Below are positions 6,690 to 63,831 of a DNA stretch of 64,000 bases, in pieces. The first letter of the stretch is position 1; each line of letters begins with the position of its first letter. The DNA lies in NCBI GenBank assembly GCA_965645245.1, contig OZ287080.1, positions 868,001 through 932,000 of the forward strand. The letters are read 5' to 3'. The position numbers were made by a program, and so were the translations under genes. The notes beneath the pieces are model-generated. The model saw only the letters and a list, made by a program, of their open reading frames with translations. It ran no database searches and was not told where the DNA came from. The DNA is from Massalongia carnosa (Eukaryota).

Positions 6690-7202
6690 TTTTTTTTTTT
6701 TTTATTCATTAAGTGTATTCAACCTAAGGTTATGACACTAAACTATTTTTGGATATGTTTCTATATTACAAATAAATCAACCTTTTATAACCCATCTATC
6801 TATTGTCAATTTTTCCCCATTTTTACTCCGTGTTAGTAACAACCTATAGTAATCGAAGAATATCGATTTTAAAATTTGTCTTTGTAAGTTCGTGAATGTT
6901 TCAGCATAAATCGTTTCTAATTTTACTGTTCGATCTCTCCCCAACCTCCAGTTTCGAAAATCTCGTCATCAAGCTGACCTAATATTAATTTTCTTGTTGC
7001 GATTTAGTTATTGACAATGAATTTAATCAAAATGTCATTTCCGATTTTTGTATTAAACAACATATTCAAATTGATCGTAGTATCGATATTTTGTTTCATG
7101 TTTTGAATTTCATCGAAATAGTGAATGCAATTCAATAACAAGTGTATTGGCGTTTGTCGTTGATTGCATCGATTTGTGTATTTTGACGAATTATAATCTT
7201 TC
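6690..7202 (-). pseudogene. LINE 3' fragment with 3'UTR and A-rich tail
   Basis: T-run at 6690, conserved 3'UTR and ETGGWGEIEQ-like C-terminus. Confidence 0.9.
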
Positions 7203-8431
7203 TTTTTTTTATTTTATTTATTCATTAAGTGTATTCAACCTAAGGTTATGACACTAAACTATTTTAAGATATGGTTTTATTTTACAAATAAATCAACCCT
7301 TTATAACCCAACTATCTTTCGTCAATATTGCCCCGTTTTTACTCCGTGTTAGTAACAACCTTTAGTAATCGAAATATCGATTTTACAATTTGTTTTTGTA
7401 AAGCTCGTAAATATTCCAGCATAAATAATTTCTAATTTTACTGTTCGATCTCTCCCCAACCTCCCGTTTCGATATTTTCGTCATCGAGCTGACCTAGCAT
7501 CCATTTTCTAGTCGCGATTTTGTTATCAACAATAAATTTAATCAAAATATTATTTCCGATCCTAGTATTAAACAACATCTTTAAAGTAATTGTGGTATCG
7601 ATATTTTGTTTCATGTTTAGGATTTCATTTGAATAATGTATGCAATTCATCAATAAGAGTTCTGGCGTTTGACGTTCGTTGCAGCGCCCTGTGCATTTTG
7701 ACGAATTATAATCTTTCAATCGGTGCAGATATGATCGAAAATAACCGTGTCCGAATTTCATTTGCATAATAGTCGCAAATATTAATTTCGAACAATTATT
7801 CGACAGATAATATAACCTCGATTGGCCCGGCTGCATTTCGAATTTCTCATAGTATTTGCCTTTTGACTTGCATTGTTGCCATTGATTCGCCCATGTGGCT
7901 AACATATTTCGATTTATTTGACCCTTTACATAATCAAATGTTATTATCGAAGACTCGACTAGGATTCGACTATGTCCCGCTTTTGCTGCTTTATCTGCAA
8001 TTTCATTTTCGACGATTTTCGAATGACTAGGAATCCATTGTAGAACCACCTGATAATTGTTTCCGAATAAGCATTTCGAGAATTTTCGAATTTGTTTTGC
8101 GTAAGTATGATTTGTCAAGTTCTGAATTTCGTTTATCGCGCTTATGCTATCGGAAAAAATACAAATCGTTTTTTCCAAATTGAAGAGAATATTTGCAATT
8201 GTCAATTTGTATGCCCATTTTATTGCTTGTAGTATCGCTCGCATACAGTTTGATCGATCGTTTTGTCATAAAATGCTTGACCCATTGAATAAATATGCGA
8301 GATAAATGCAGCTTTTTCATAACATTTAGCAATTGATTAATCGAAACAAAGTCAAATACTCCTTTGACATCGAGTAATAGACATGATAAAACGTTTTTGT
8401 TTCGGTTTGCGATTTCGATATCATGAACGAC
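7203..8431 (-). pseudogene. C-type LINE 3' part with an internal deletion between RT and RNase H (junction ~8230)
   Basis: Tail at 7203 and RNase H/CCHC ORF 7438-8244, followed by an abrupt switch to RT sequence. Confidence 0.85.
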
Positions 8432-22003: not shown

Positions 22004-25000
22004 TATTCGTTGCGGCCCAATCAAAAGCTGATTTGACGATAATTTCGATTTCTTTGCAATTCTGTGTAGCAGTTTTATTTTCGACATATATTGCAACATC
22101 GTCTATAAAGCTAGGTGAATGAGCGTTGAATTTCATTCGTATTTTCGGAAATAAGTAACGAATATAAATCAGAAATAGAATTGGCGAAATTGGTGAACCT
22201 TGTGGAATTCCAGATTCGATATAGTACGTTTTGCTTTTGTGTTCATCGAATATAAAATTGATCGATCGTTTTGTCATAAAATGCTTGACCCATTGAATAA
22301 CTATGCGATATAAATGCAGCTTTTTCATGACATTTAGCAATTGATTAATCGAAACAAAGTCAAATGCTCCTTTGACATCGAGTAATAGACATGATAAAAC
22401 GTTTTTGTTTCGGTTTGCGATTTCGATATCATGAACGACGTTCATTACCGCATCGATTGCAGAATGATTTTTCCGTCCGCCCATTTGTTCGGTATCTAAC
22501 AAGCTCGAATTTTCGCCGAGGTAGGCTAGTCGATTCCCAACTATTTTCTCCGCAATTTTACTAAGACAATTCAGTAAGGTAATAATTCGATATGATTTTG
22601 GCAGCGAGTAGTCTGGTTTATTATGTTTTTTTAAAACAGCACCGAGTCCTGTTCGCCAACATAACGGGTGATAACCGATTTGTATAAACTTAGAATAAAT
22701 AGTAAAAAACACGTATTTCAATGGTTTAAACGCTTTTTGAATTATAGTGAAATTGATTGCATCAGGTCCACATGATTTCTTTGGATTAAACAACCTAATC
22801 GCATTTTGCAATTCATTTTCGGTTAAATTCGGCCAATTGTTGTCATTTTCGCTGTCTTGATTCGTTAAATCTTCAATATTATCATCCGTGAACGGGTTTA
22901 TTTTGTACATTGCTGATACAAACGCATCGCATTTGTGATCGAATTGAACATTTAACTTATTTTCATATTGAATAGGTGGTATTTTTTCGAACATGCGCGG
23001 TTTAGTGTATTTATAAGCTGTAAATACGTCTTTATTCGCTGCGTTTTCGAGGAAAGCCAACCAAGTTTGCTGTTTCGCTTTTCGAATTGCATGAAAGTAC
23101 TCGATTCGACTATGTCTAAATGTTTGATGACTAAAATAGGACGGATTATTCTTCCATTCTCGACGATGTCTACACATGATTTTTCGAAGTCTGGATAAAT
23201 CTTGCGACCACCAATTTTTCGATTTTGCGCATATTTTTGTCTTCGGAATAAACATTTCAGCCGCGTTTTTGATAACGTTTTGCAAATATAACGCTGATTC
23301 ATCAAATTGATAATTGTTCAATAGACTTTGTATTTGGGACTCGTAGTTTACTGCATTTTCGTCTAGAAACTTAGCGAATTTATCCCAATCGGCTTTATTG
23401 CAGTTGTATTTATTCGATAATGCGGTTGCGTGAGACGTCAAGTTCTTGAAAGACGCGATAAGTTCAAATCGAATAACTTCATGATCTGAACCCGTGACTG
23501 CGTTTTCATCGATTGACCAATTTGTAATTGCGTTTTCGATTTTGGAATTTGCAAATGTTAAATCAATAATAGATGAAGAGTTTCCTGAATGAGCAAAAAA
23601 TGTATATAGATCAGGCGTATTTATCAAACTACATTTGTTTAATTTTAACCATTTGACTAGATTTTCTGATCGAATTGCATTTTGAATCTTCGAATTCCAC
23701 CAGCTATGATGTGCATTGAAATCTCCACATATGACAAATTGATCAGTTGATAGGTTGATATTTAACTAAAAGTCGATCGATTGTATATGTTTCTCGATCG
23801 TTTAGACTTTTTTCATTGTAAAGGTTAAAGATCTGCACTTTTCGAACTTCATCAATTGTAATTTCGATAATTTGCAGATCAGTATCGTTTATAAGATCCG
23901 TTCTAGGCGTGCATTGTAATTTTGGATTGCATTTTGTAACGAATATAGCTACTCTCGGCCGATAAGTCGCTATTTTCGGCATAATACATGTGAATGACGG
24001 ATGGGAAATTGTGTTTTGATCTCGCGTCCATGGTTCCTGAAATAAAACAATATCAACACGATTTAATACTGCATATTCCAGACACGAAATCATTGCATTC
24101 GTTGACTTTGCACAACTATGTTGAATAAATTTGACGTTTTGTGTATTTTCGATATTTGTCAACGAATGTTGTCCCGCCATTAACCAAGCATTAATTCATC
24201 ATTCGATTTTCTAGGATTTAGCTAGAAAAACATGTCGCAACCTATATCGTTCGATTGATGATTTTTGTTGCAATTGACGCATTTCAGAATTGCATGCAGG
24301 CATGCGATTTTAGACTTGCATGTTGTGCATTCATGATTATGCGTTTCATGACTTTGTGCGCATATATTGCATTTTGCCGGACTTTTGCATTGATAATGCT
24401 TATGTCCAAATTTCTGACAATTAATACATTGCGTGTTTGGACGAACGGAAGCAAATATTTCCGTGTCACAATGTCTACCCGCGATATTCACGCCTCTTAA
24501 CGCGTTTGACGCTTGATTTTGATTATTGAAAGTCATAACTAATGACGACGTGACTTTGTTTTGACGATCCCGAGCAAGCCATCTTGGTAAATCGCATAGT
24601 TGCATATTCGAATTGTATTTTTCGATTTCGGTTTGCAAATATTGCATGTTATTATCGAATAACGAGATATTTACTCCGTGTGCTATGACTTTAAACCAGG
24701 ATTCGTCTTTTCGAATTCTTTGTGATTCGAAAATGTGTTCCCATGAAGATTTATTTTTCAACAATTCTTCGGCATTGTTGTCTGGGCTAGTGGTGAGAAG
24801 GATATTCTGACCGGTTTTGGACTTTTCAACAGTATTGACGATGATGTTTAAATTTGCGTTATTTAATAGCGCGTTAATTTGATCACGCAACTTCATAGAG
24901 TCGATTTGAGCGTCAGGATTTTTCGGTGAAACCACGAGTCGTCTGGCCTTGATTGCATCAAATCGATCGACTTTGTTCGAATTATGATTCGAACTTTTCC

Positions 25001-26662
25001 TTTGAATAGTAGTACAATTTTCGGAGTTTTCGGTTGCTTTTCCAAGCATTTGACTCCATGTACCGATTGTGCTAACATTGTTACTAGAGACCCCGGTGGC
25101 TCCTTTACGAATGGTCTGATTTTCGATAATTGAATTTTCGTTCAATTTAACAACAGGTTTTTGGATTTTTGGACCATTCTGTAGTGGAGTCGTTTGTTAT
25201 TGTGACGTTTTTGAGGAAAGATGACTAGTTTGATCAAGTACTATGCCCATTTTATAGTTAATCATATCTAAGGATGTTTGTAAATTGATTGATTTTTTCG
25301 AAATCAACGAATTAACGTTGTCAATTACGATAGCCGTTTGTGGATTTTGGTCCAGTACAAATGATTGCAATAATGCTTTTTTGGCCGACTTTAGAAGCTC
25401 AATTGAATTTGCCCGATTGATCGCTTCTTGGCTATCTCTCGAATGTTCGTCAATGTGCGTCTTTTATTTCGTTTGATTGGTGGGCTTGATCCAATGTTTA
25501 AGTTCAATGAAGGCATCGGCAAGATAGTTGAAAATGGACCCGATGGGAATTTCGTTGCCTTTGGTGTCGGTGTTGACGGGGATGATGCATATTCGCGAGT
25601 TTGATCCATAGGTTCAAGACGGGGAGAGCTCCCTATCAACGCCACCGGAGATGGTCCGGGGGAGTGTCGGGGGGGGGCCGGGTAAGGGGTCGATAGGGGG
25701 GCGGGACCGACTGGGGGTGGTGTCCTTGGTATATTCCGGCGATTCATTACCGAGTTAAATATGGATTTATAAATAAATCGATGTTGCCTTTGCTATATCC
25801 CCTTTATCGCCACCAAATAATTTATTCTCACGTTCCCCGGACGTAAGAGTCAGAATAGAGAATTTTTACGCCGATTTACTGGTCTAAAGACTCTTGCTTT
25901 CCAAACCCTATTTATTTGACAATAACAAGTCAAATAAATCCTAGTCGAGTTAAAATAGACCGTTCCTCGCTTAGGCAATAGATCTTATTTAACTCTTTAC
26001 CTTGACACTACGATAAATAGAATATAATAAGAATTTTACGATCGAACAGAAAATTTTTTTTTTTAAAAAATGTTTTTGATCCAGAAATAAAAATCAAGTA
26101 CAATGAGTGAGAGGAGACTTCCTATTCTGGTTAGCCTGAAACAGGGCCTTTGGTTTAACCTAATTTCAGACGTTTTTCCCCTTCATTTCAGCAGATTGTT
26201 GGTCGGCAGTTCAACGAAAATCGAAAAAACACAAAATGGAATAGTGTATACGGTACCGGTAACCTTAAATTTCAAATGAACACCAAGAAGTTTTGTTGTC
26301 TCGAGAACAGGTTGTACAGTTACGCGACAGTGATGTTATTTTGTAGATAATTTTTGTGATAATAGATGAGATCTATGCGACAATTAAACCGAAGAAATAT
26401 CGAAAATCGAGCGATGTTTGAGGTTGTTGTTGGTGTTTTTGTGTTTTGTAGATTTTTTGGACGCGCTTTTTGGTGAAGGGGCGGAAAGACCGCGAGGAAA
26501 ACTCTGCAGGAGCAGTGGAAGAGCTCTCCTGTACCCAATTCTGATGGGTTTTAGCTTCTGGTAGGCTCAAATGAATGAGAAGAATGAGGAGAATAAGTTG
26601 GGAAAGTTTCAGTATATCAAAACATAGGGTACCGATGTTTTGGGGGCTGGCTTTTTGCTGAT
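22004..26662 (-). mobile_element. C-type LINE with complete 5' end, disrupted ORF1/ORF2, 3' part missing
   Basis: ORF1 pieces 25391-25747 and 24222-25145; ORF2 pieces 23743-24180 and 21972-23627; 5'UTR extends to ~26662. Confidence 0.95.
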
Positions 26663-26834
26663 AGTCGGAATGAGGCGTGCGTGGGGACGACCTAGGCGGA
26701 ACTGGTCGAGGCGGTGAGGATTGCGGAAAGGTTTTCCCAAAGGCCTCACCGTGGAGCGACCGACAAATATAGATTTGCTCCTATCTTTTCACATCAAAAC
26801 AATGCTAATTTAACGCGTTCACACGCGTCGCAGA

Positions 26835-26996
26835 TACGACGCGGAATGGGTTGGGTTTTGCCACAGTTGGGTAACCCAAGTTACTAATAATAGTATACTT
26901 TTACGGGTTTAATTCTATATATAGTATACTAGTATACTAAATATAGTTGTTTGAGTTGGGTTTTCAAAGTCAGAACCCAACCCATTCCGCAGCGTA
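26835..26996. mobile_element. 162-bp MITE, hAT-type
   Basis: 8-bp TSD gtcgcaga (26827-26834, 26997-27004); ~26-bp TIRs tacg(ac/ct)gcggaatgggttgggtt(t/c)tg; empty site in the paralogous copy at ~29416. Confidence 0.9.
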
Positions 26997-27333
26997 GTCG
27001 CAGACGTACGTACGGAAGAGGCTACGAAGGCCAACCGCCGGGGGGTAGAATGCGCGCGTCCCTGCATCATGCTTCTAAGGGTTCAAGTCCCTTCATGTTG
27101 TCATCAGCTGGAAGAAGATGTGGACTAAAGGAGCCGGATCATCCCCCACCCGGGCACAATCGACACGCGTTCTAGCTCCTGAGCGTTTAAGTCTCCCCAT
27201 GCAGTCATCAGCTGGGATCAACAGAACGCGTAAAGGCACCGGGGCGAATGCTGTCACCTCAAGAAAACTCCATCTCGGAGCAGATTTACAATATCCCATT
27301 TAATAGGCCCGGCATGTTAAATAAAATCGAGGA

Positions 27334-27490
27334 AAACATAGAGTCACAAAACACATAGTCATCAATCACATGTTGTACAAAGCGCACAGCCACAAAGCAC
27401 ATAGTCACAAACATACAGTCACAAACACACAGTCAAAAAACACACAGTCATAAAACACACAGTCACAAAAAACACAGTCATAAATCAATA
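27334..27490. repeat. CA-rich tandem repeat (~14-15 bp unit acacacagtcacaa, ~10 units); paralogue at ~29753-29927
   Basis: Directly visible; unit number differs between the two copies. Confidence 0.9.
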
Positions 27491-28245
27491 ATACGTCCCT
27501 GTAAAGGGAGTTCTGCGGGGGCTCGTTAAGACAGATCTGTACCCCGTTAATATCGGCGTACATATTTTTAGAGGTTCAAGTCCTTTCTAGCAGTTATCAG
27601 CTGAAAATGATGCATTTTGACACGGGCATGGTGAGGATTTGACACGGGTAGACCTCGATGGATCACAAAACGAATGAAAAGAGTTCAGCGGAAGTTCGTT
27701 AATATTGTTCTCGAAGACCTCGTTAATAAGATTTTCATAGACCTCGTTAACAACGTTCAGTCATACTCTTGAAGGTTCAAGTCCTTTCATGCAGTCATCG
27801 GCTGAGAGCTAAAGACGTACGACACGGGTCAGCTATGTCTGTCACACGGGTCTCCTTCGTCTACAACACGGAGCCCTCCGGCTGAAAGAAATAAAACATA
27901 TAGACACATAGTGTAGGGTCACACCCTACACGATACAAGAGATTTAGGTTATGAAAACCATCCGATTGATGGCTACCGTGAGCAGCACGTCCCGAACCGG
28001 ATTCGTACCGGGGATGGTGGAGGCAACCTAGTCATCAAATAGGACACCCTTGGGACAAGAAGAGGGCAATATACGAGGAACCCGTTAATTGATAACAGTC
28101 TAGGCCCTGAGCTACTAGACGAATTTCAAACGAGCACCCCTCCGAGTTGTCCTCGACTCGTTTTGGTTAGTAGGGACGGAAAATCGATACTATACTTCCT
28201 GGTCAGGAGCATAGTGGTCAAAATCCCTGCGATACATGGTCGGTT

Positions 28246-28289
28246 TTTTATTTTATTTTATTTATTCATTAAATGTATTCAACCTAAGG
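28246..28289 (-). mobile_element. LINE 3' tail, probably belonging to the minus-strand LINE body at 52973-56239
   Basis: ttttattttattttatttattcattaaatgtattcaacctaagg; the TSD acatggtcggtt flanks 28246 and 56239. Confidence 0.75.
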
Positions 28290-29185
28290 GCTTATGGAAC
28301 AACAAATATGCCGAATGGAACGAAGACGAAAAACAAACAAATAAACGGCATCCTAGTCAGCTTATTCGTGTTTTGCACTCCGTTTCGGTCATAGTTCACA
28401 AAACTGATGAATTCGAACAATCAAATAACTTCATTAAACCATGGAAGTCGTCGTGTAAAATCGAGTTTCAAATAGAAAACTCAAAAGAAACAGCAAAATC
28501 AAGTTATTATTCGACTTTGTCCAAAATTCAATTTATTAATTCCGAAATCACGAATATTACTTTATACGGATGGATCAAAATTAGAATTTGCAACTTCTGC
28601 GGTCACATTTGCACCAATTATGCGAAAATGGAACAATTTTATCGATAATTTCGATCACCTTATCGAAAAAGATTGCCTTATCCAACATTATACAATTTCG
28701 GAAAGCTGGAAATTGAGCAAACAGTCAAGCATTAAAAATTCTGAACTTCATGCGATTTTACAAGCAGTCAAATGGGTATATAAGTTAACGAACGAGAATA
28801 TATTATCGAATTTAGAAAAACCAATATGGATTTTTTCCGATAGTTTGAATGTGATAAACGAAATTCAATATTTAACAAATCATATTTATACGAAGCAAAT
28901 TCGAAAGATTGCAAAATGTTTATTCGAAAACAACTATCAGATAATTCTGCAATGGATTCCTAGTCATTCGAAAATTATCGAAAATGAAATTGCAGACAAA
29001 GCGGCGAAAGCAGGACACACAGTCAAATCATAGCGGAGTCCTCGGCGATCAAATTTGACTACTTGAAAAGTCAAATTCATCAAAATACGCTAAACACATG
29101 GACGAATCAATAGCAACAATGCAGGTCAAAAGGCAAACATAACGAGAAATTTGATATGCAACCTGGCAAATCGAGCTTGTATCAT
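28290..29185 (+). pseudogene. LINE RNase H-region fragment (same variant as 2076-3169)
   Basis: LTNENILSNLEK, IFSDS and NEIAD; frameshifts present. Confidence 0.9.
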
Positions 29186-31065
29186 CACATCACTAAAGCA
29201 CCACCGCATCATTTAAATTTCTATCACATTATTATATATCGGTCCTCCTCCTTCTACACCATCGGTCCTCCTCCTTCTACACCATCGGTCCTCCTCCTAC
29301 ACCATCGGTCCTCACCACGGAGACACCAAAGGCCTCACCGTGGAGCGACCGACAAACATAGATTTGCTCCTATCTTTTCGTATTAAAACAATGCTAATTT
29401 AACGCGTTCACACGCGTCGCAGACGTAGGTACGGAAAAGGATACGAAGGGCAACCGCCGGGGGGTAGAATGCGCGCGTCCCTGCACCATGCTTCTAAGGG
29501 TTCAAGTCCCTTCATGTTGTCATCAGCTGGAAGAAGATGTGGACCAAAGGAGCCGCATCATCCCCCACCCGGGCACAATCGACACGCGTTCTAGCTCCTG
29601 AGAGTTCAAGTCTCCCCATGCAGTCATCAGCTGGGATCAACAGAACGCGTAAAGGCACCGGGGCGAATGCTGTCACCTCAAGAAAACTCCATCTCGGAGC
29701 AGAATAACAATATCCCATTTAATAGGCCCGGCCTGTTCAATAAAATCGAGGAAAACACACAGTCACAAAACACATAGTCATCAATCACACGTTGTACAAA
29801 GCACACAGTCACAAAGCACATAGTCATAAACATACAGTCACAAATACACAGTCAAAAAACACACAGTCACAAACCACACAGTCACAATACACACAGTCAC
29901 AAAAAACACAGTCACAAATCAATAACACGTCCCTGTGAATGGGGTTCTGCGGGGGCTCGTTAAGACAGATCTGCACCCCGTTAATATCGGCGTACATATT
30001 TTTAGAGGTTCAAGTCCTTTCAAGCAGTCATCAGTTGAAAATGATGCATTTTGACACGGGCATGGTGAGGATTTGACACGGGTAGACCTCGATGGATCAC
30101 AAAACGAATGAAAAGAGTTCAGCGGAAATTCGTTAATATTGTTCTCGAAGACCTCGTTAATAAGATTTTCATAGACCTCGTTAACAACGATCAGTCATAC
30201 TCTTAAAGGTTCAAGTCCTTTCATGCAGTCATCGGCTGAGAGCTAAAGACGTACGACACGGGTCAGCTATGTCTGTCACACGGGTCTCCTTCGTCTACAA
30301 CACGGAGCCCTCCGGCTGAAAGAAATAAAACATATAGACACATAGTGTAGGGTCACACCCTACACGATACAAGGGATTTGGGTTATGAAAACCATCCGAT
30401 TGATGGCTACCGTGAGCAACACGGCCCGAACCAGAGTCGTACCGGGGATGGTGGAGGCAACCTAGTCATCAAATAGGACACCCTTGGGACAAGAAGAGGG
30501 CAATATACGAGGAACCCATTAATTGATAACAGTCTAGGCCCTGAGCTAATAGACGAATTTTAAACGAGCACCCCTCCGGGTTGTCCTAGACTCGTTTTGG
30601 TTAGTAGGGACGGAAAATCGATACTATACTGCCTGGTCAGGAGCATAGTGGTCGAAATCCCTGCGAGACATGGTCGGTTCATAAACGGGAGAACTTTATG
30701 AATAACGCGAAGTGGGCGTAAAAAACCCGTGAGGCGTGGTATGCAATGGGGGCCACCGTACGGAGACCGTCTGCATAGCCCGAGAGGACAGTATGCGCAT
30801 GTCGGTGTATATAGAGCAGGGAATGTCTATCTCGCTCGTAACGAAACCCAGTCGGTTCGCCGGCGCATGGGCTACGGCTAGACTCGCCCTTGATATATGC
30901 TTAAGGAGTAATCTGGGTTTGACCTGGGCGAAAGGGACGTCGTTCACACCAATCGTAGAATTCATCAATAATCTTGGGCCGTAAAACTCACCAGTGAGAT
31001 GAACGAAAACTCGGATAGAGATTTCACGAAGGAGATGTCAACTCTATTTTATCATTCTTAGCCCG
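29186..31065 (+). mobile_element. Non-coding structured repeat, copy 2 (uninterrupted, ~1.9 kb), fused at its 3' end to C-type LINE ORF1
   Basis: Paralogue of 26737-28245 plus 56240-56637; four T-loop motifs; ends ...attcttagcccg. Confidence 0.8.
29238..29313. repeat. Tandem repeat atcggtcctcctccttctacacc (~23 bp, about 3.5 units)
   Basis: Directly visible; the third unit is shortened. Confidence 0.9.
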
Positions 31066-34000
31066 ACACTCAACTGGACCATCTCGGGTGGCGTTGATAG
31101 GGAGCTCTCCCCGTCTTGAACCTATGGATCAAACTCGCGAATATGCATCAGCCCCGTCAACACCGACACCAAAGGGAACGAAATTCCCATCGGGTCCATT
31201 TTCCACTACCTTGCCGATGCCTTCATTGAACTTAAACATTGGATCAAGCTCACCAATCAAACGAAATAAAAGATGCACATTTGACGAACATTCGAGAGAT
31301 AGCCAAGAAGCGATCAATCGGTCAAATTCAATTGAGCTTCTAAAGTCGGCCAAAAAAGCATTATTGCAATCATTTGTACTCGACCAAAATCCACAAACGG
31401 CTATAGTAATTGACAACGTTAATTCGTTGATTTCTAAAAAATCAATCAATTTACAAACATCCTTAGATATGCTTAACTATAAAATAGGCATAGTACTTGA
31501 TCAAACTAGTCATCTTTCCTCCAAAACGTCACAACAACAAACGACTCCACTACAGAACGGTACAAAAATCAAAAAACCTGTTGTTAAATTGAATGAAAAT
31601 TCAATTATCGAAAATCAGACCATTCGCAAAGGAGCCACCGTGGTCTCTGGTAACAATGTTAGCATAACCGGTACATGGAGTCAAATGCTTGGAAAAGCAA
31701 CCGAAAACTCCGAAAATTGGACTATTATTCAAAGGAAAAGTTCGAATCATAATTCAAACAAAGTCGATCGATTTGATGAAATCAAGGCCAGACGACGCGT
31801 GATTTCACCGAAAAATCCTGACGCTCAAATCGACTCTATGAAGTTGCGTGATCAAATTAACGCGCTATTAAATAACGCAAATTTAAACATCATCGTCAAT
31901 ACTGTTGAAAAGTCCAAAACCGGTCAGAATATCCTTCCCACCACTAGCCCTGACAACAATGCCGAAGAATTGTTGAAAAATAAATCTTCATGGGAACACA
32001 TTTTCGAATCACAAAGAATTCGAAAAGACGAATCCTGGTTTAAAGTCATAGCACACTGAATAAATATCTTGTTATTCTATAATAACATGCAATATTTGCA
32101 AAGCGAGATCGAAAAATACAATTCGAATATGCAACTATATGATTTACCAAGATGGCTTGCTCGGGATCGTCAAAACAAAGTCACGTCGTCGGTAGTTTTG
32201 ACTTTCAATAATCAAAATCAAGCGTCAAACGCGTTAAGAGGCGTAAATATCGCGGGTAGACATTGTAACACGGAAATATTTGCTTCCGTTCGTCCAACAC
32301 GCAATGTATTAATTGTCAGAAATTTGGAAATAAGCATTATCAATGCAAAAGTCCGGCAAAATGCAATATATGCGCACAAAGTCATGAAACGCATAATCAT
32401 GAATGCACAACATGCAAGTCTAAAATCGCATGCGCACATGCAATTCTGAAATGCGTCAATTGCAACAAAAATCATCAATCGAACGATATAGGTTGCGAAA
32501 TGATTTTCTCGCTAAATCCTAGAAAATCGAATGATGAATTAATGCTTGGTTAATGGCGGGACAACATTCGTTGACAAATATCGAAAATACACAAAATGTC
32601 AAATTTATTCAACATAATTGTGCAAAGTCAACGAATGCAATGATTTCGTGTCTGGAATATGCAGTATTATATCGTGTTGATATTGTTTTATTTCAGGAAC
32701 CATGGACGCGAGATCAAAGAACAATTTCCCATCCGTCATTCACATGTATTATGCCGAAAATAGCGACTTATCGGCCGAGAGTAGCTATATTCGTTACATA
32801 ATGCAATCCAAAATTAGAATGCACGCCTAGAACCGATCTTATTAACGATACTGATCTGCAAATTATCGAAATTACAATTGACGAAGTTCGAAAAGTGCAG
32901 ATCTTTAACCTTTACAATGAAAAAAAGTCCAAACGATCGAGGAACATATACAATCGATCAACTTTTAGTTAAATATCAACCTATATCAACTGATCAATTT
33001 GTCATATGTGGAGATTTCAATGCACATCATAGCTGGTGGAATTCGAAGATTCAAAATGCAAGTCGATCAGAAAATCAAATCAAATGGTTAAAATTAAACA
33101 AATGTAGTTTGATAAATACGCATTATCTATATACATTTTTTTCTCATTCAGGAAACTCTTCATCTATTATTGATTTAACATTTGCAAATTCTAAAATCGA
33201 AAACGCAATTAAAAATTGGTCAATCGATGAAAACGCAGTCACGGGTTCAGATCATGAAGTTATTCGATTTGAACTTATCGCGTCTTTCAAGAACTTGACG
33301 TCACACGCAACCGCATTATCGAATAAATACAACTGCAATAAAGCCGATTGGGATAAATTCGCGAAGTTTCTAGACGAAAATGCAATAAACTACGAGTCCC
33401 AAATACAAAGCCTATTGAACAATTATCAATTTGATAAATCAGCGTTATATTTGCAAAACGTTATCAAAAACGCGGCTGAAATCTTTATTCCGAAGAAAAA
33501 AATATGCGCAAAATCGAAAAATTGGTGGTCGCAAGATTTAACCGGACTTCGAAAAATCATGTGGAGACATCGTCGAGAATGGAAGAATAATCCGTCCTAT
33601 TTTAGTCATCAAACATTTAGACATAGTCGAATCGAGTACTTTCATGCAATTCGAAAAGCGAAACAACAAACTTGGTTGGCTTTCCTCGAAAACGCAGTGA
33701 ATAGAGACGTATTTACAGCTTATAAATACACTAAACCGCGCATGTTCGAAAAAATACCACCTATTCAATATGAAAATAAGTTAAACGTTCAATTCGATCA
33801 AAAATGCGTTGCGTTTGTTTCAGCAATGTACACAAAAAACCCGTTCACGGACGATAATATTGAAGATTTCTCGTATCAAGACAGCGAAAATGACAAAAAT
33901 TGGCCGAATTTAACCGAAAATGAATTGCAAAATGCGATTAGTTTGTTAAATCTAAAGAAATCATGTGGACCTGATGCAATCAATTTCACAATAATTCAAA

Positions 34001-35044
34001 AATCGTTTCAACAATTGAAAAACGTGTTTTTTAATATTTATTCTATATTTATTCAATTCGGTTATCACCCGTTATGTTGGCGAACAGGACTCGGTGCTGT
34101 TTTAAAAAAACATAATAAACCAGACTACTCGCTGCCAAAATCATATCGAATTATTACCTTACTGAATTATCTTGGTAAAATTATGGAGAAAATAGTTGCT
34201 AATCGACTAGCCTACCTCGGCGAAAATTCGAGCTTGTTAGATACCGAACAAATGGGCGGACGCAAAAATCATTCTGGAATCGATACGGTAATAAACGTCG
34301 TTCATGATATCGAAATCGCAAAGCGAAACAAAAACGTTTTATCATGTCTATTAATCGATGTCAAAGGAGCATTTGACTTTGTTTCGATTAATCAATTACT
34401 AAATTTCATGAAAAAGCTGCATTTATCTCGCATAGTTATTCAATAGGTCAAGCATTTTATGACAAAACGATCGATCAATTTGATATTCGATGAACACAAA
34501 AGCAAAACGTACTATATCGAATCTGGAATTCCACAAGGTTCACCAATTTCGCCAATTCTATTTTTGATTTATATTCGTTACTTATTTCCGAAAATAAGAA
34601 TGAAATTCAATGCTCATTCACCTAGCTTTATAGACGATGTTGGAATATATGTCGAAAATAAAACTGCCAAACAGAATTGCAAAGAAATCGAAATTATCGT
34701 CAAAACAGCTTTTGATTGGGCCGCATCGAATAATGTCAAATTTGATAACGATAAATCTGAGTTGATTCACTTCGAAAAGTCATGAAATGCATCAAAAGAC
34801 AAAGTGCAATTACCAAACGGGACAATACTAGAACCGAAAAATTCTGTCAAATGGTTAGGAGTCTGCTTAGACCGAAAACTAAATTACAAAAAACACATCG
34901 AAACGCGAATTGCTTCTGCAAATAGATCGTTTTTCGCAATTCAAAATTTGATGAAGTCTGAATGGGGACTAAACCCAACTGCATGCAGACAGCTCTATTT
35001 GTCATGCATTATTCCTATTTCGGACTATGGCTCAGAAATCTGGT
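31062..35044 (+). mobile_element. C-type LINE, 5' segment (ORF1 lacking its first ~30 codons, APE, RT); resumes at 51206
   Basis: ORFs at 31088-35208, TAATG at 32551; 13-bp TSD tcagaaatctggt at 35032-35044 and 51206-51218. Confidence 0.92.
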
Positions 35045-38000
35045 TTTTTTTTATATTTATTTATTTATTTTATTTATTTATTAAGTGTATTCAACCTAAG
35101 GTTATGACACTAAACTATTTTAAGATATGGTTTTATTTTACAAATAAATCAACCCTTTATAACCCAACTATCTATCGTCAATATTGCCCCGTTTTTACTC
35201 CGTGTTAGTAACAACCTTTAGTTATCGAAATATCGATTTTACAATATGTTTTTATAAAGCTCGTAAATATTCCAGCATAAATCATTTCTAATTTTACTGT
35301 TCGATCTCTCCCCAACCTCCCGTTTCGATATTTTCATCATCGAGCAGACCTAGCATCCATTTTCTAGTCGCGATTTTGTTATCAACAATAAATTTAATCA
35401 AAATATTATTTCCGATCCTAGTATTAAAAAACATTTTTAAAGTAATTGTGGTATCGATATTTTGTTTTATGTTTAGGATTTCATTTGAATAATGTATGCA
35501 ATTCATCAATAAGTGTTCTGGCGTTTGACGTTCGTTGCAGCGCCCTGTGCATTTTGACAAATTATAATCTTTCAATCGGTGCAGATATGATCGAAAATAA
35601 CCGTGTCCGAATTTCATTTGCATAATAGTCGCAAATATTAATTTCGAACAATTATTCGACAGATAATAAAAACTCGATTTGCCCGGCTGCATTTCGAATT
35701 TCTCATAGTATTTGCCTTTTGACTTGCATTGATGCCATTGATTCGCCCATGTGGCTAACATATTTCGATTTATTTAACCCTTTACATAATCAATTTTTAT
35801 TATCGAAGACTCGACTAGGATTCGACTATGTCCCGCTTTTGCTGCTTTATCTGCAATTTCATTTTCGACGATTTTCGAATGACTAGGAATCCATTGTAGA
35901 ACCACCTGATAATAGTTTCCCAATAAGCATTTCGAGAATTTTCGAATTTGTTTTGCGTAAGTATGATTTGTCAAGTTCTTAATTTCGTTTATCGCTTTTA
36001 TGCTATCGGAAAAAATCCAAATCGTTTTTTCCAAATTGAAGAGAATATTCGCAATTGTCAATTTGTATGCCCATTTTATTGCTTGTAGTATCGCATACAG
36101 TTCAGCGTTTTTAACGCTTGACTGTTTGTTTAATTTCCAGCTTTTCGAAATAGTTTGATGTTTGAGGAGACAATCTTTCTCGATAAAACGATTGAAGTTA
36201 TCGGTGAAATTGTTCCAATTTCGCATAATTGGTGCAAATGTGACAGCGGAAGTTGAAAACTCGGTTTTTGATCAATCGGTATAGAGTAACATTCGCGATT
36301 TATCGGCGTTTATTGATTGGATTTGTGATAAAGTCGAATAATAACTTGACTTTGCTGTTTCTTTTGATCTTTCGATTTGGAACTTGATTTTACAAGACGG
36401 CTTCCATGGTTTGATGAAATTATTTACTGATTCGAATTCATCAGTTTTGTGAACTACATCCGAAACGGAATGAAGAATACGGATAAGCTGACTAGGATGA
36501 AGTTTACTCGATTTTTTCTCGTCTTCGTTCCATTCAGCATATCTGTTGTTCCATAAACTAGTGTCAAAACCGATGTTTTCGAATTTCACAGAATAGGTAC
36601 TGGGAATTCTTTGACAAATAGGATTATTTTCGGCAATCTTCAATAATTGAATTGCGTATTTTTGATTTTTCATCAACAATCGTAGCTTGGCTGGTAAAAT
36701 ATGCGATTCAATTTCCATCGCCTGAACAAGCGTTGTTTTGAATGTGCCTAAAATCTTTCGAATCATTCGATTTTGCATATTCTGAAATAGCTTTTCATAT
36801 GTCTTTTGACCGTTATACCAGATTTCTGAGCCATAGTCCGAAATAGGAATAATACACGACAGATAGAGCTGTCTGTATGCAGTTGGCTTTAGTCCCTATT
36901 CAGACTTCATCAAATTTTGAATTGCGAAAAACGATTGATTTGCAGAAGCAATTCGCGTTTCGACGTGTTTTTTAAAATTTAGTTTTCGGTCTAAGCAGAC
37001 TCCTAACCATTTGACAGAATTTTCGGTTCTAGTATTGTCCCGTTTGGTAATTGCACTTTGTCTTTTGATGCATTTCTTGACTTTTCGAAGTGAATCAACT
37101 CAGATTTGTCGTCATCAAATTTGACATTATTCGATGCGGCCCAATCAAAAGCTGTTTTGACGATAATTTCGATTTCTTTGCAATTCTGTGTGGCAGTTTT
37201 ATTTTCAACATATATTACAACATCGTCTATAAAGTTAGGTGAATGAGCATTGAATTTCATTCGTATTTTCGGAAATAAGTAACGAATATAAATCAGAAAT
37301 AGAATTGGCGAAATAGGTGAACCTTGTGGAATTCCAGATTCGATATAGTACGTTTTGCTTTTGTGTTCATCGAATATCAAATTGATCGATCGTTTTGTCA
37401 TAAAATGCTTGACCCATTGAATAACTATGCGTGATAAATGCAGCTTTTTCATAACATTTAGCAATTGATTAATCGAAACAAAGTCAAATGCTCCTTTGAC
37501 ATCGAGTAATAGACATGATAAAACGTTTTTGTTTCGGTTTGCGATTTCGATATCATGAACGACGTTCATTACCGCATCGATTGCAGAATGATTTTTCCGT
37601 CCGCCCATTTGTTCGGTATCTAACAAGGTCGAATTTTCGCCGAGGTAGGCTAGTCGATTAGCAACTATTTTCTCCGCAATTTTACCAAGACAATTCAGTA
37701 AGGTACTAATTCGATATGAATTTGGCAGCGAGTAGTCTGGTTTATTAGGTTTTTTTAAAACAGCACCGAGTCGTGTTCGCCAACATAACGGGTGATAACC
37801 GATTTGTATAAACTTAGAATAAATAGTAAAAAACACGTTTTTCAATTGTTGAAACGATTTTTGAATTATTGTGAAATTGATTGCATCAGGTCCACATGAT
37901 TTCTTTGGATTAAACAAACTAATCGCATTTTGCAATTCATTTTCGGTTAAATTCGGCCAATTGTTGTCATTTTCGCTGTCTTGATTCGTTAAATAGGATC

Positions 38001-56239: not shown

Positions 56240-56637
56240 ACATGGTCGGTTCATAAACGGGAGACCTTTATGAATAACGCGAAGTGGGCGTAAAAAACCC
56301 GTGAGGCGTGGTATGCAATGGCGGCCACCGTACGGAGACCGTCTGCATAGCCCGAAAGGACAGTATGCGCATGTCGGTGTATATAGAACAGGGAATTTCT
56401 ATCTCGCTCGTACCGAGACCCCGTCGGTTCGCCGGCGCATGGGCTACGGCTAGACTCCCCCTTGATATATGCTTAAGGAGTAAACTGGGTTTGACCTGGG
56501 CGAAAGGGACGTCGTTCACCCCAATCGTAGAATTTATCAATAATCTTAGGCCGTAAAACGCACCAGTGAGATGAACGAAAACTGGGATAGAGACCTCACG
56601 AAGGAGATGTCAACTCTATTTTATCATTCCTAGCCCG
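56240..56637 (+). mobile_element. Non-coding structured repeat, copy 1, 3' part, fused to B-type LINE ORF1
   Basis: Collinear with 30668-31065; ends ...attcctagcccg. Confidence 0.85.
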
Positions 56638-59600
56638 CCTATTAAGCGTAACAAACGAAAAACATTCGACGAACGAGTAGAGGAAAGCCAAGAAGCAATC
56701 AATCGAGCACAATCGATTGGATTACTAAAAACGGCTAAAACCGCGTTATTGAAGTCATTTGTCTTAGATCAAAATCCAGAAACAGCAATAGTCATTGATA
56801 ATGTCAATTCCTTATTGACAAAAAAATCAATTAATATAAAAACAACACTAGACATGATGAATTGGAAATTGGACAGGGTAATTGATTAGACTAGTAATCG
56901 AACCTCAGAATCAACGCGAAAATCGACTCGGGTTCAACAAGTCAATACGACTGAAAATCCAAATAAAGTCGTCAACACGAACGCACGAAAGGAAACCGCC
57001 GGGGTTACGAGTACAAAGGTCAATAACACGCCTCCATCCTGGAGTCAAATGCTTGGAAAAGCAACTGCGAATTCCGAAAATTGGACCACTGTTTCCAAAT
57101 CGAAAAATTCGAGTCAAACCTCGAACAAATTCGACAAAACCGATGAATTAAATGCAATCAAACTCAGACGACTGATAATTACACCAAAAATTCAAATCGG
57201 CGATATCGACTCATTGAAACTTCGAGATCAAATCAACGGGCAATTCAGCAACGCGAAGTTAGATATCGTAATCAACACGGTCGAAAAATCGAAAACCGGT
57301 CAGAATATCGTTCTCACTACTAGTTCGAAAAACACTGCTGCAGAATTGTTGGAAAACAAATCTATATGGGAACATATTTTCGATGCACAAAGAATTCGAA
57401 AAGACGAATCCTGGTTTAAAGTGATCGCACATGGAGTAAATATTGCAACGTTTGATTAAAATATGCAATATTTGCAAAATGAAATCCAGAAATTCATGGA
57501 ATTATGCGATTTACCCAGATGGCTAGCGCGAGACCGCGAAAATAAAGTCAATTCTTCGGTCGTTTTGACTTTTAACGATCGAAATCAGGCCTTAAACGCG
57601 TTAAAAGGCGTAAATATCGCGGGAAAACACTGTGACACGGAAATATTTACTTCCGTTCGTCCGAATACACAATGTATTAATTGTCAAAAATTCGGACACA
57701 AGCATTATCAGTGTCGAAATAAATCAAAATGAAATATTTGTGCACAAAATCTTGAAACACGTAATCATGAATGCATAACATGCAAATCGAAAACTGCGTG
57801 TGTACACGTTGTTGTGAAATGTGCAAACTGCAATTAAAATCATCAATCAAATGATGAACATTGTGAAATGTTTACTGCATTAAATCAACGAAAATCGGCT
57901 GACGAATTATCCGCCTTATAATGGCAGGACAGCATTCGTTGGCAAATATAGAAAATACTCACAATGTCAAATTTATTCAACACAACTGTGGAAGGTCAAC
58001 GAATGCAATGACTTAGTGTTTGGAATATGCTTTATCAAATCAATGGATATTGTTTTGTTTCAGGAACCATGGACACGAGATCAAAAAACAATATCACATC
58101 CGTCATTTACTTGCATTATGCCGAAAATAGCAACTTATCGCTCAAGAGTAGCTATATTTGTCACAAAATGCACTCCCAAACTTCAATGCACGCCTAGAAC
58201 GGATCTTATTGACGATTCCGATATGCAAATTATTGAAATTACAATTGATGAAGTTCGAAAAGTGCAGATTTTTAATATTTATAACGAAAAAAGTCAAAAT
58301 GATCGAGAAACATACGCGATCGATCGACTTTTAATCAAATATCAACCTATATCAACTAATCAATTCCTCATTTGTGGAGATTTCAATGCACATCATAACT
58401 GGTGGAATTCAAAAATTCAACACGCAATTCGATCAGAAAATTTATTCAAATGGTTGAAAATAAACAAATGTAGTTTGATAAACACACCTGATTTATGTAC
58501 ATTCTACGCCCCTTCTGGAAGTTCATCATCTGTTATTGATTTATCATTTACAAATTCCAAAATCGAAAATACAATTACTAACTGGGCAATCGACGAAAAC
58601 GCAGTCACAGGTTCAGATCATGAAGTCATCCGATTTGAACTAATCGCATCTTTCAAAAATTTGACGTCACATGCAACCGCATTATCGAATAAATATAATT
58701 GCAATAAAGCCGATTGGAATAAATTCGCGAAGTTTCTAGACGAAAATTCAATCAACTACGAATCAAAAGTTCAAAGTTTATTGAATAATCATCAATTCGA
58801 CGAATCAGCGATACATTTGCAAAAAATTATTAAAAACGCGGCTGAAATATTTATTCCGAAAACGAAAATATGTGCAAAATCGAAAAATTGGTGGTCGCAA
58901 GATTTAACCGAACTTCGAAAAATCATGTGCAGGCATCGTCGAGAATGGAAGAATTATACGTCCGATTTTAGTCATCGGATGTTTAAACATAGTCGAATCG
59001 AGTATTTTCATGCAATTCGAAAAGCAAAACAACAAACCTGGTTGACTTTTCTAGAAAATGCAGCGAATAAAGACATGTTTACCGCGTATAAACATACTAA
59101 ACCGCGCATATTCGAAAAAATACCGCCGATTCTATATGAAAATAAGCGTAATGTTTAGTTTGATGACAAATGCGATTCGTTTGTGTCAGCAATGTACATT
59201 AAAAACACATTTATAGACGATAATGTCGAAGATTTACCAAATCAAGACAGCGAAAATGATGATAATTGGCCAGATTTGAGCGAAAACGAGCTGCAAAATG
59301 CGATTAATTTATTTAATCCGAAGAAAGCATGTGGACCTGATGCAATCAATTTTACAATTGTTCAAAAATCGTTTCAATCGTTGAAAAACGTGTTTTTCAT
59401 GATTTATTCGAAATTCATTCGAATCGGTTATCACCCGTTATGCTAGCGGACAGGACTCGGTGCAGTTCTGAAAAAACCTAATAAATCAGACTATTCGCTA
59501 CCAAAATCATATCGAATTATCACATTGCTAAATTGTCTTGGTAAAATTGCTGAGAAAATCGTTGCAAATCGACTAGCCTACTTCGGCGAAAATTCGAATT

Positions 59601-62600: not shown

Positions 62601-62981
62601 GAATATGTTGTTTAATACAAAAATTGGAAATGACATTTTGATTAAATTCATTGTCAATAACAAAATCGCGACTAGAAAATGGATACTAGGTCAGCTTGAT
62701 GACGAAATTGTTGAAACGGGAGGCTGTGGAGAGATCGAACAGTAAAATCAGATATGATTTATGTTGAAACATTTACGAACTTACTAAGACAAATTGTAAA
62801 ATCGATAATTTCTCGATTACTATAGGTTGTTACTAACACGGAGTAAAAACGGGGGAAAATTGTCGATACATAGATGGGTTATAAAGGGTTGATTTATTTG
62901 TATTATAGAAACATATCCTAAAATATTTTAGTTTCATAACCTTAGGTTGAATACACTTAATGAATAAATAAAAATAAAAAA
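56632..62981 (+). mobile_element. B-type LINE lacking its 5'UTR and ORF1 start (56632-60528 plus 61333-62981), multiple stops
   Basis: Collinear with 18213 onward; TAATG at 57919; tail at ~62960-62981. Confidence 0.92.
60529..61332 (+). mobile_element. 5'-truncated LINE (0.8 kb) nested in the same orientation
   Basis: TSD tgaatcacatgt (60517-60528) and tgagtcacatgt (61333-61344); has its own 3'UTR and tail. Confidence 0.9.
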
Positions 62982-63831
62982 TTATCGGGTGGTTCTACAA
63001 TGGATTCCTAGTCATTCGAAAATCGTCGAAAATGAAATTGCAGATAAAACAGCAAAAGCGGGACATAGTCGAATCCTAGTCGAGTCTTCGATAATAACAT
63101 TTGATTATATAAAGGGTCAAATAAATCGAAATATGTTAGCCACATTGGCGAATCAATGGCAACAATGCAAGTCAAAAGGCAAATACTATGAGAAATTCGA
63201 AATGCAGCCGGGCAAATCGAGTTTTTATTATCTGTCGAATAATTGTTCGAAATTGATATTTGAGACTATTATGCAAATAAAATTCGGACACGGTTATTTT
63301 CGATCATATCTGCACCGATTGAAAGATTATAATTTGTCAAAATGCACAGGGCGCTACAACGAACGTCAAACGCCAGAACACTTATTGATGAATTGCATAC
63401 ATTATTCCAATGAAATCCTAAACATGAAACAAAATATCGATACCACAATTACTTTAAAAATGTTGTTTAATACTAGGATCGGAAATAATATTTTTATTAA
63501 ATTTATTGTAGATAACAAAATCGCGACTAGAAAATGGATGCTAGGTCAGCTCGATGACGAAAATATCGAAACGGGAGGTTAGGGAGAGATCGAACAGTAA
63601 AGTTAGAAATGATTTATGCTAGATTATTCACGAGCTTTACAAAAACATATTGTAAAATCGATATTTCGATTATTAAAGGTTGTTACTTACACGGAGTAAA
63701 AACGGGGCAATATTGATGATACATAATTTGGTTATAAAGGGTTGATTTCTTTGAAAAATAAAAATAAATCTTAAAATAGTTTAGTATCATAACCTTAGGT
63801 TGAATACGCTTAATGAATAAACAAAAAAAAA
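62982..63831 (+). pseudogene. C-type LINE 3' fragment with 3'UTR and tail
   Basis: WIPSH...NEIAD and CCHC region; tail ends at 63831. Confidence 0.9.

Follow-up and report, generated by a model that had tools for sequence, protein, structure and literature searches.

A repeated tRNA T-arm-like hairpin in a LINE-associated non-coding element: a candidate cis-acting RNA module

The stretch of DNA analysed here (64,000 nucleotides, positions 868,001 to 932,000 of contig OZ287080.1 from the Massalongia carnosa assembly GCA_965645245.1; hereafter, the window) is crowded with nested LINEs whose domains include endonuclease, reverse transcriptase and RNase H, as revealed by self-comparison and a domain search. 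Within this nest lies a non-coding element that is represented by a full-length copy (copy B), an incomplete copy (copy A) and a short third copy (Table 1). Copies A and B each carry four hairpin units, or modules, resembling an arm of a tRNA, so that the window contains eight. In copy B, an array of three 23-mers (29246-29313) is followed by modules 1 and 2, a 15-mer array, modules 3 and 4, and the conserved 3' half, which ends with ...TTCTTAGCCCG and includes a covarying hairpin of its own at about 30342-30362. Copy A is missing ~140 nt at its start and ~385 nt at its end and bears a 162-bp MITE-like insertion; its 15-mer array occupies 27334-27490. The 15-mer array repeats a CAGTCA core that is also present in the 16-nt segment of the modules.

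Table 1. Principal features of the non-coding element and the adjoining LINE sequences; the core of a module extends from the 5' strand through the 3' strand of its outer stem, and bits are scores of the covariance model match
Feature	Positions	Strand	Remarks
Element copy A	26737-28245	+	95% identical to copy B (repeat finder, self-comparison)
Module 1, copy A	27072-27114	+	CTTCT/GGAAG outer stem, AAGGG-TTCAAGT-CCCTT, then CATGTTGTCATCAGCT; 63.2 bits
Module 2, copy A	27176-27218	+	degraded: GAGCG, loop TTTAAGT; 61.3 bits
Module 3, copy A	27565-27607	+	TTTTT/GAAAA outer stem, AGAGG/CCTTT inner stem; 65.4 bits
Module 4, copy A	27766-27808	+	CTCTT/GAGAG outer stem, GAAGG/CCTTT inner stem; 69.3 bits
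LINE fragment, RNase H region	28290-29185	+	between copies A and B; PF00075
Element copy B, full length	29186-31065	+	~1.88 kb, non-coding
Module 1, copy B	29491-29533	+	63.2 bits
Module 2, copy B	29595-29637	+	GAGAG/CTCCC inner stem with one A.C mismatch; 66.2 bits
15-mer tandem array (ACACACAGTCACAAA-like)	29753-29924	+	between modules 2 and 3
Module 3, copy B	29999-30041	+	64.1 bits
Module 4, copy B	30200-30242	+	71.6 bits
Conserved 3' half of the element	30300-31065	+	long blocks common to otherwise barely alignable relatives
LINE fused in sense to copy B	31062-35050	+	ORF1, then ORF2 with endonuclease and reverse transcriptase
Third element copy, 5'-truncated	56240-56641	+	last ~400 nt; 3' end as in copy B

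The limits of the element were mapped by comparing Logan contigs of four runs (X1, X4, X5 and X6) with positions 29100-31300. The stretch ~29190-31061 is very abundant in run X1, with 3988 contigs placed and a roughly even depth across 29322-31097, and in one run the element is as abundant as the LINE itself. At the 5' end, the LINE fragment lying upstream can be matched to its sister copy only as far as 29185, and two different flanks precede 29186/29187 in run X4. At the 3' end, the continuations behind 31061, 31063 and 31064 differ (X4, X5 and X6), the homology with the copy at 56240 stops at 31065, and the homologous end is seen in three metagenome loci described below (L001, L004 and L006). 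Bounded homology with differing flanks at both ends indicates that the element is a discrete unit that spans 29186-31065.

Examination of the sequences behind the 3' end shows to what the element is joined. Among eight canonical junctions, sense LINE sequence follows in five, at differing LINE positions, whereas the match is weak in one and no LINE is recognised in two. The LINE behind copy B lacks only its own ~1-kb 5' UTR; in X1 and X6, this LINE's own upstream sequence, which matches 25672-25701, ends loose before 31062. The copy at 56240 is joined (at 56637) to another LINE subfamily, starting ~190 nt further in than the LINE of copy B, and in X4 and X5 the element end is followed by sense ORF2 sequence at two further positions. 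The truncation points accordingly fall at about 1.0, 1.2, 3.5 and 4.1 kb into the full-length LINE and, in L006, at about residue 712 of ORF2 (E 1e-21); behind the element end there is only a weak RNase H match in L001/L005 (E 0.03-0.09) and no recognisable LINE in X6 and L004. The junction of copy A is non-canonical, that is, this copy stops at 28245 and is followed by ~44 AT-rich bases and the LINE RNase H fragment, into which copy B together with its LINE appears to have been inserted. When target-site duplications flanking a whole chimera were looked for, nested insertions were seen to break up the chimeras of the window, and no unique place could be assigned to the continuation of the interrupted LINE. 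A search for domains in the LINE ORF1 detects none that is recognisable, even at E<=5; among ORF2 homologues, there is a weak match from Monilinia.

This arrangement, namely a constant non-coding 5' part with a fixed end followed by sense LINE sequence with variable 5' truncation, together with 5' truncation of the composite as such, is that of MINE from Magnaporthe grisea, in which the WEIRD non-coding RNA is fused to the MGL LINE, a fusion attributed to template switching of the LINE reverse transcriptase (Gogvadze et al. 2007, PMC2104539, where Fudal et al. 2005 is cited for MINE/WEIRD). By analogy, the element has the MINE/WEIRD architecture. Thus, the earlier note correctly described a non-coding, LINE-associated element, but it is not an anonymous one, being the constant 5' partner of MINE/WEIRD-like chimeric retroelements. 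The possibility that the element is the 5' UTR of the LINE or a site-specific LINE target was considered and set aside, since one and the same end of the element is found next to several LINE positions and to more than one LINE subfamily; the element also does not resume at the interrupted point after the LINE fragment 28290-29185. Copies A and B are not a pair of LTRs either, given that their ends differ. The fixed 3' end, the variably truncated sense LINEs and one 5'-truncated copy together imply that the + strand existed as RNA and served the LINE reverse transcriptase as a template, as in the WEIRD-MGL chimeras. The junctions suggest that the RNA of the element ends at a defined 3' position and is not polyadenylated.

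The 44-nt unit was identified by direct reading of positions 26400-31200 and with a repeat finder, and all eight units that had been reported earlier are found in place. Each consists of a 5-bp stem capped by the loop TTCAAGT, together with a conserved stretch of 16 nt, CATGCAGTCATCAGCT, and an outer stem of 5 bp, pyrimidine on one strand and purine on the other, which usually lies within a longer helix. The sequence GTTCAAGTC has seven matches in 64 kb, all inside units, compared with 0.55 expected from shuffles; the 13-mer CAGTCATCAGCTG, with up to two mismatches, occurs eight times in the window (0.68 expected), and a 31-nt unit pattern occurs six times (0 expected). These counts are so far above the shuffle expectation that chance is not the explanation. 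A covariance model built from the units recovers in the window only the same eight (61-72 bits), with the next best match below 10 bits, and therefore the LINEs of the window lack the module. The complement of the 16-nt segment has no site anywhere in the window with up to two mismatches, so that no long-range partner for this segment was found. The description of four covarying inner stems in the earlier note holds in general but not for unit 2, in which GAGAG/CTCCC contains an A.C mismatch, and the stem sequences quoted there as one set mixed copies A and B. A relative has a fully paired GGGAG/CTCCC inner stem. In module 1 of copy B, contig variants show that the family majority has CA at 29517-29518, which restores CATGCAG.

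Scanning metagenome contigs with a degenerate 31-nt pattern yielded six loci, L001-L006; two of these (L001/L005) are 99% identical, so that five lineages are available beside the window. Pattern and covariance model searches identify two to three modules per locus. When these loci are compared with the window, alignment is limited to the modules (80-92% identity in alignments of 30-68 nt) and the 3' half of the element; in other words, the module is kept in five other sequence lineages in which the surrounding 5' region has diverged beyond alignment. Locus L001 contains a 175-nt tandem repeat (92% identity) with one unit in each repeat. On reading, several of the metagenome loci look TA-rich, as after repeat-induced point mutation. 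A search for the unit motif in contigs of prokaryote genomes gave 0 matches.

The window and the metagenome relatives together provide an alignment of 21 distinct units with one small indel zone. Taking the two stems as first drawn, standard pairs occupy 91.4% of the 210 stem cells, compared with 44-68% when the 3' partner is slid by 1-3 columns and 81% after within-column shuffles; changes on both sides are seen in eight of the ten stem pairs (38 cells). The covariation score of 0.55 (vs 0.35) was reached by 0 of 500 shuffles, a test that overstates significance because the units are paralogues and orthologues and not independent samples. In addition, both stems oppose a purine run to a pyrimidine run, which makes for high background pairing: the left strand of the outer stem is pyrimidine-only and the right strand purine-only, and by hand count 8 of the 13 distinct outer-stem types are fully paired, compared with ~5 predicted from composition alone. 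Unconstrained RNAalifold predicts both stems on 17 longer, freely aligned units (copy A and L005 were omitted as near-duplicates). Single-sequence folding gives a weak signal, with z-scores of -2.0, -2.0, +0.1 and -0.4 for the four units of copy B, among which the minimum-energy fold holds the T-arm hairpin in unit 4 only.

The pairing extends beyond the two stems. A unit's own 25-nt flanks form a more stable duplex (mean -10.25 kcal/mol) than flanks combined from different units (-7.63 kcal/mol), a result attained by 0 of 20000 permutations. This makes the module, in most units, an imperfect hairpin of about 75-90 nt, so that the size of ~45 nt suggested previously is too small. For example, a 9-bp helix, ACGCGTTCT/AGAACGCGT, encloses unit 2 of the window (the duplex was computed on the copy-B counterpart), and in orthologous units of L004 and L006 the extended helix reads TTACAC/GTGTAA and TTATAC/GTATAA, respectively. 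The enclosing helices of most units are unrelated in sequence. In the loop, six of the seven positions are invariant in 21/21 units and the seventh is C in 19/21, that is, TTCAAGT in 19 distinct units and TTTAAGT in the other two. With a closing G-C pair in 20/21 units, the features of a T-arm (5-bp stem, 7-nt TTCRANT loop, G53-C61 closing pair) are all present. The variants listed for the family, which cover 40 of the 78 variant positions, include none in the stems or loops of copy B.

As for the strand, the outer stems do contain the U-G pair noticed earlier, with T.G at the inner end in 8/8 window units and 18/21 distinct units. The + strand assignment drawn from it is retained, but the argument rests mostly on this one conserved T...G position: when it is set aside, 15 G.U and 9 A.C cells leave a slight strand asymmetry, and the extended helix is equally good on the minus strand. 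The + strand is better supported by the fact that the element always lies in the same sense as its fused LINE. Altogether, the pairing counts and the RNAalifold prediction support the earlier description of a T-arm-like stem-loop on the + strand that covaries and is closed off by a further helix.

Comparison with catalogued RNAs provides no closer identification. A search of Rfam 15 at E<=10 returns three chance-level matches, none at the units, and no tRNA match in 24000-34000; ARAGORN detects 0 tRNAs in the 64-kb window. Neither program finds the cloverleaf with D-arm, anticodon arm and acceptor stem that a tRNA gene or the head of a tRNA-derived SINE possesses. The absence of a D-arm and an anticodon arm, and of an assignment to a known family, both of which had been asserted from reading alone, thus hold. 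A telomerase RNA or another housekeeping RNA seems an improbable identity for the element, there being no Rfam match and, on reading of the sequence, no telomere-template word, and the copy number being as high as that of the LINE. Literature searches by topic, and by motif among the listed matches, yielded no description of the module. Judged by the Rfam catalogue, the RNA motif is likely new, and the kind of element that carries it is known.

We propose that the units are a cis-acting structured RNA module of the + strand transcript, a mimic of the T-arm that recruits a protein. Taken whole, this statement is tentative, with a chance of being right that falls slightly short of even. Its component parts differ in strength: the units probably represent a selected RNA structure, and it is doubtful that they have a specific role in protein recruitment, for which the partner is a matter of pure inference. 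Covarying stems, an invariant loop, an invariant 16-nt strand, survival amid decay and a copy number of two to four per element all speak for a selected structure with sequence-specific recognition; and because the element is copied through RNA in the sense of the LINE, the + strand modules are present in the intermediate. In the proposed fold, the stem with the UUCAAGU loop would stack on the 5-bp pyrimidine/purine helix, which usually ends in a U.G pair, and the 16-nt strand CAUGCAGUCAUCAGCU would bulge on the 3' side. The modules would then be candidate binding sites for a LINE protein or for a host factor that recognises T-arms. Such binding might bring the non-coding RNA into the LINE ribonucleoprotein or keep it there, or else stabilise or export the RNA, which could subsequently serve as the acceptor when the reverse transcriptase jumps between templates, or the chimera that it heads could propagate. 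The presence of several modules per element might increase avidity.

The strongest alternative places the function at the DNA level. The Pol III B-box has the consensus GGTTCRANTCC, and the 11-mer GGTTCAAGTCC present in most units is a full B-box match at all 11 positions. Clusters of B-boxes at heterochromatin boundaries of fission yeast are bound by TFIIIC. The 11-mer core could therefore be a B-box-like site, or a site for some other factor, within monomers of ~100-200 bp that make up an internal promoter or enhancer, much as the monomers do in the 5' UTR of mouse L1; alternatively, the units could form a TFIIIC-bound barrier, with the hairpin potential inherited from a tRNA ancestor. Considered jointly, these two versions appear unlikely, and several observations speak in their favour. 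Among the listed literature matches, the 11-mer also turns up in work on tRNAs and on their promoters. Units 3 and 4 are spaced by 201 nt, and the tandem repeats of L001 have one unit each; short motifs, namely CGTTAA, ACACGGG, CAGTCA and the E-box-like palindrome CAGCTG, recur around the units; the repeats sit in the 5' half of the element, and a retroelement depends on an internal promoter; and the invariance of loop positions 59 and 60, which are free in tRNAs, fits sequence-specific recognition. However, a DNA-level role would require no complementarity outside GG...CC, and yet complementarity persists, despite changes on both sides, in the outer three pairs of the inner stem as well as in the outer stem and the extended helix. 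Moreover, the B-box G52 and C62 change together to A and T in the units with GGGAG/CTCCC. Transcription of the units by Pol III in particular is unlikely: by eye there is no A-box at the right distance (30-60 bp upstream), TTTTT occurs inside unit 3, and no consistent T-run follows the units. A role in RNA and a role in DNA are not exclusive of each other.

Both further explanations are weaker than the DNA-level one. The units could be functionless relics, that is, decayed tRNA-derived sequences (3' halves or SINE heads) that were captured and duplicated, with the conservation reflecting recent descent. The modules are clearly tandem-duplicated, their T-arm sequence is that of real tRNAs among the listed matches, and by our reading the seven bases behind the stem can be taken for an acceptor strand; but the lack of any cloverleaf or tRNA match (ARAGORN, Rfam), the persistence of the module in lineages with unalignable surroundings, and the compensatory changes in the stems beside a loop and a 16-nt segment that hardly vary make this very unlikely. 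Least credible of all, and scarcely to be expected, is a processing signal, either a new self-cleaving ribozyme or sites of the RNase P/Z type at which the transcript would be cleaved into fragments or small RNAs. In its favour, the 16-nt segment read on the minus strand gives CUGAUGA, the core word of the hammerhead, the T-arm with its stacked helix resembles a tRNA minihelix, and the 3' end of the element RNA appears defined. Against it, none of the known self-cleaving ribozymes (hammerhead, HDV-like, twister, pistol, hatchet) matches in Rfam at E<=10; a minus-strand hammerhead is rejected because helix II is absent and CUGAUGA is altered, in unit 4 as well as in unit 3 of L001/L005, at a position that hammerheads keep invariant, with the structure on the opposite strand. 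The stack is interrupted on its 3' side, opposite to what is seen in a tRNA minihelix; all units lie well inside the element, at 820-1570 nt from its 3' end; and in the one family examined, joining of unit 1 to unit 4 with loss of modules is confined to one low-depth contig.

Returning to the RNA-level reading, it can be carried one step further. The modules might act as entry tickets to the LINE ribonucleoprotein, through binding to a LINE protein or, at the ribosome, to a host factor that handles tRNAs, such that the non-coding RNA would be at hand when the reverse transcriptase reaches the end of the LINE template and jumps. We consider this quite unlikely; if true, it would define a class of 5'-side retroelement parasites that acquire a LINE tail by template switching and supply a promoter-bearing head, and it would give a structural reason for the choice of one RNA as the chimera partner, as with WEIRD in Magnaporthe. 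LINE chimeras headed by a non-coding RNA have been known since MINE/WEIRD, and the choice of that RNA was left open. Here, a partner RNA in the same architecture is extremely abundant, is conserved across diverged fungal lineages and bears a repeated, covarying mimic of a tRNA arm. The module accordingly offers a concrete, mutable handle on how a non-coding RNA gains reverse transcription by a LINE, and a means to test whether B-box-like sequences in transposons work as RNA or as DNA. Even if it is a promoter repeat only, it remains a useful annotation for a large repeat family.

Precedents exist for the type of element (MINE/WEIRD), for T-arm mimicry as a means of recruitment in RNA viruses and for 5' monomers in mouse L1. 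A close structural counterpart is the T-arm of tRNA itself, which shares with the units the 5-bp stem, the 7-nt UUCAAGU loop and the closing G-C pair. The units differ from tRNA in that they have no D-arm, anticodon arm or acceptor stem; in that their stacked helix runs unbroken along the 5' strand but is interrupted by 16 nt in the 3' strand, the reverse of the situation in tRNA; and in the invariance of loop positions 59-60. In the RNAs of brome mosaic virus, the box B stem-loop is a T-arm mimic that is used as a recruitment signal. Like box B, the module is a T-loop-like hairpin within a longer helix of a non-tRNA RNA, with the replicase or reverse transcriptase supplied in trans; unlike box B, it belongs to another kind of replicon, is repeated two to four times and has an extra conserved 16-nt strand. 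The monomers in the 5' UTR of mouse L1 are tandem promoter DNA repeats, for which, to our knowledge, no covarying RNA hairpin has been reported. Both systems have tandem units of ~100-200 bp that lie in non-coding 5' sequence of a LINE-type element and vary in number from family to family, but the spacing here is regular only in part.

Among fungal elements, Eg-R1 and the BG_Non-LTR family of Blumeria graminis are Pol II-transcribed, non-autonomous non-LTR elements (PMC6022598), and the excerpted text of that source presents several parallels: high copy number, a (nearly) non-coding sequence, dependence on LINEs, no derivation from tRNA, and a LINE-rich fungal genome. Eg-R1 was examined as a possible identity of the element and is not supported, the module words not being found in a supplement file that may contain only part of the consensus (PMC6022598). 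With MINE, as depicted in the excerpted text of PMC2104539, the differences are as follows: the element measures ~1.88 kb compared with 1.1 kb for WEIRD, matches the LINE in abundance in one run whereas MINE has 31 copies, has relatives in several diverged lineages whereas no homologues are given there for WEIRD, and carries the repeated T-arm-like module, none being described there for WEIRD. The likeness concerns the overall plan, in which a non-coding 5' part of ~1-2 kb, present at full length, is followed by a variably 5'-truncated LINE in the same sense, with a junction that is fixed on the non-coding side (PMC2104539); furthermore, the host of the element described here is probably an ascomycete fungus too.

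The 3′ half of the element (the ~1.88-kb non-coding LINE partner) is more conserved than the region that bears the T-arm modules, i.e., the repeated T-arm-like hairpins of the 5′ half. Across diverged lineages, represented by relatives of the element in the metagenome loci L001, L003, L004 and L006, this half contains long, near-invariant blocks (see the table for examples), and it also includes a covarying hairpin (GTGTAGGGTCACACCCTACAC vs GCAAGGGGTCGCACCCTTTGC). Two independent breakpoints of the element, the end of copy A and the start of a 5′-truncated copy, lie no more than 12 nt apart; the site is possibly a breakage hot spot, or else marks a structural boundary. Elsewhere in the window, 5′-truncated LINE 3′ ends form head-to-tail arrays, and a LINE 3′ unit occurs in tandem copies; these LINEs seem to insert adjacent to one another's 3′ ends.

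Features of the element and of the LINE arrays (window positions)
Feature	Position	Sequence or remark
Element 3′ half	30300–31065	Near-invariant blocks, e.g., TTGGTTAGT, GACATGGTCGG, TAACGCGAAG, GGCGTGGTAT, ATGCTTAAGGAGTAA
Breakpoint zone	30668–30679	CATGGTCGGTT
Breakpoint 1, copy A end	28245	Within CATGGTCGGTT zone of element
Breakpoint 2, start of 5′-truncated copy	56240	Within CATGGTCGGTT zone of element
23-mer (×3), element 5′ end	29246–29313	TCCTCCTTCTACACCATCGGTCC
15-mer array	27334–27490 and 29753–29924	CAGTCA, ~10×
Copy A insertion	26835–26996	162 bp
Flanking 8-bp duplication	26827–26834 and 26997–27004	GTCGCAGA
Head-to-tail LINE 3′-end arrays and tandem LINE 3′ units	60529–63831; also 6690–7717	Tandem unit of 513 bp

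Short sequences are reiterated in the element. The CAGTCA core of the 15-mer array recurs within the conserved 16-nt strand of all modules and directly upstream of module 4, and may represent an additional binding motif, at the RNA or DNA level. Of the four sequencing runs compared over 29100–31300, three (X1, X4 and X6) reach their greatest depth in the bin containing the 23-mer repeats, and run contigs also include variants of this region that continue into other sequence. In run X4, labelled as a lichen metagenome, 227 contigs match window 29100–31300, 37 of them at ≥99%; thus, the element family is present in this sample, and it is found as well in runs labelled with four other organisms.

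Copy A carries an insertion that is absent from copy B. Its terminal inverted repeats are 26 nt long, with 88% complementarity, and the 8-bp duplication flanks it. This insertion looks like a small MITE; the size of the duplication would match hAT-type elements.
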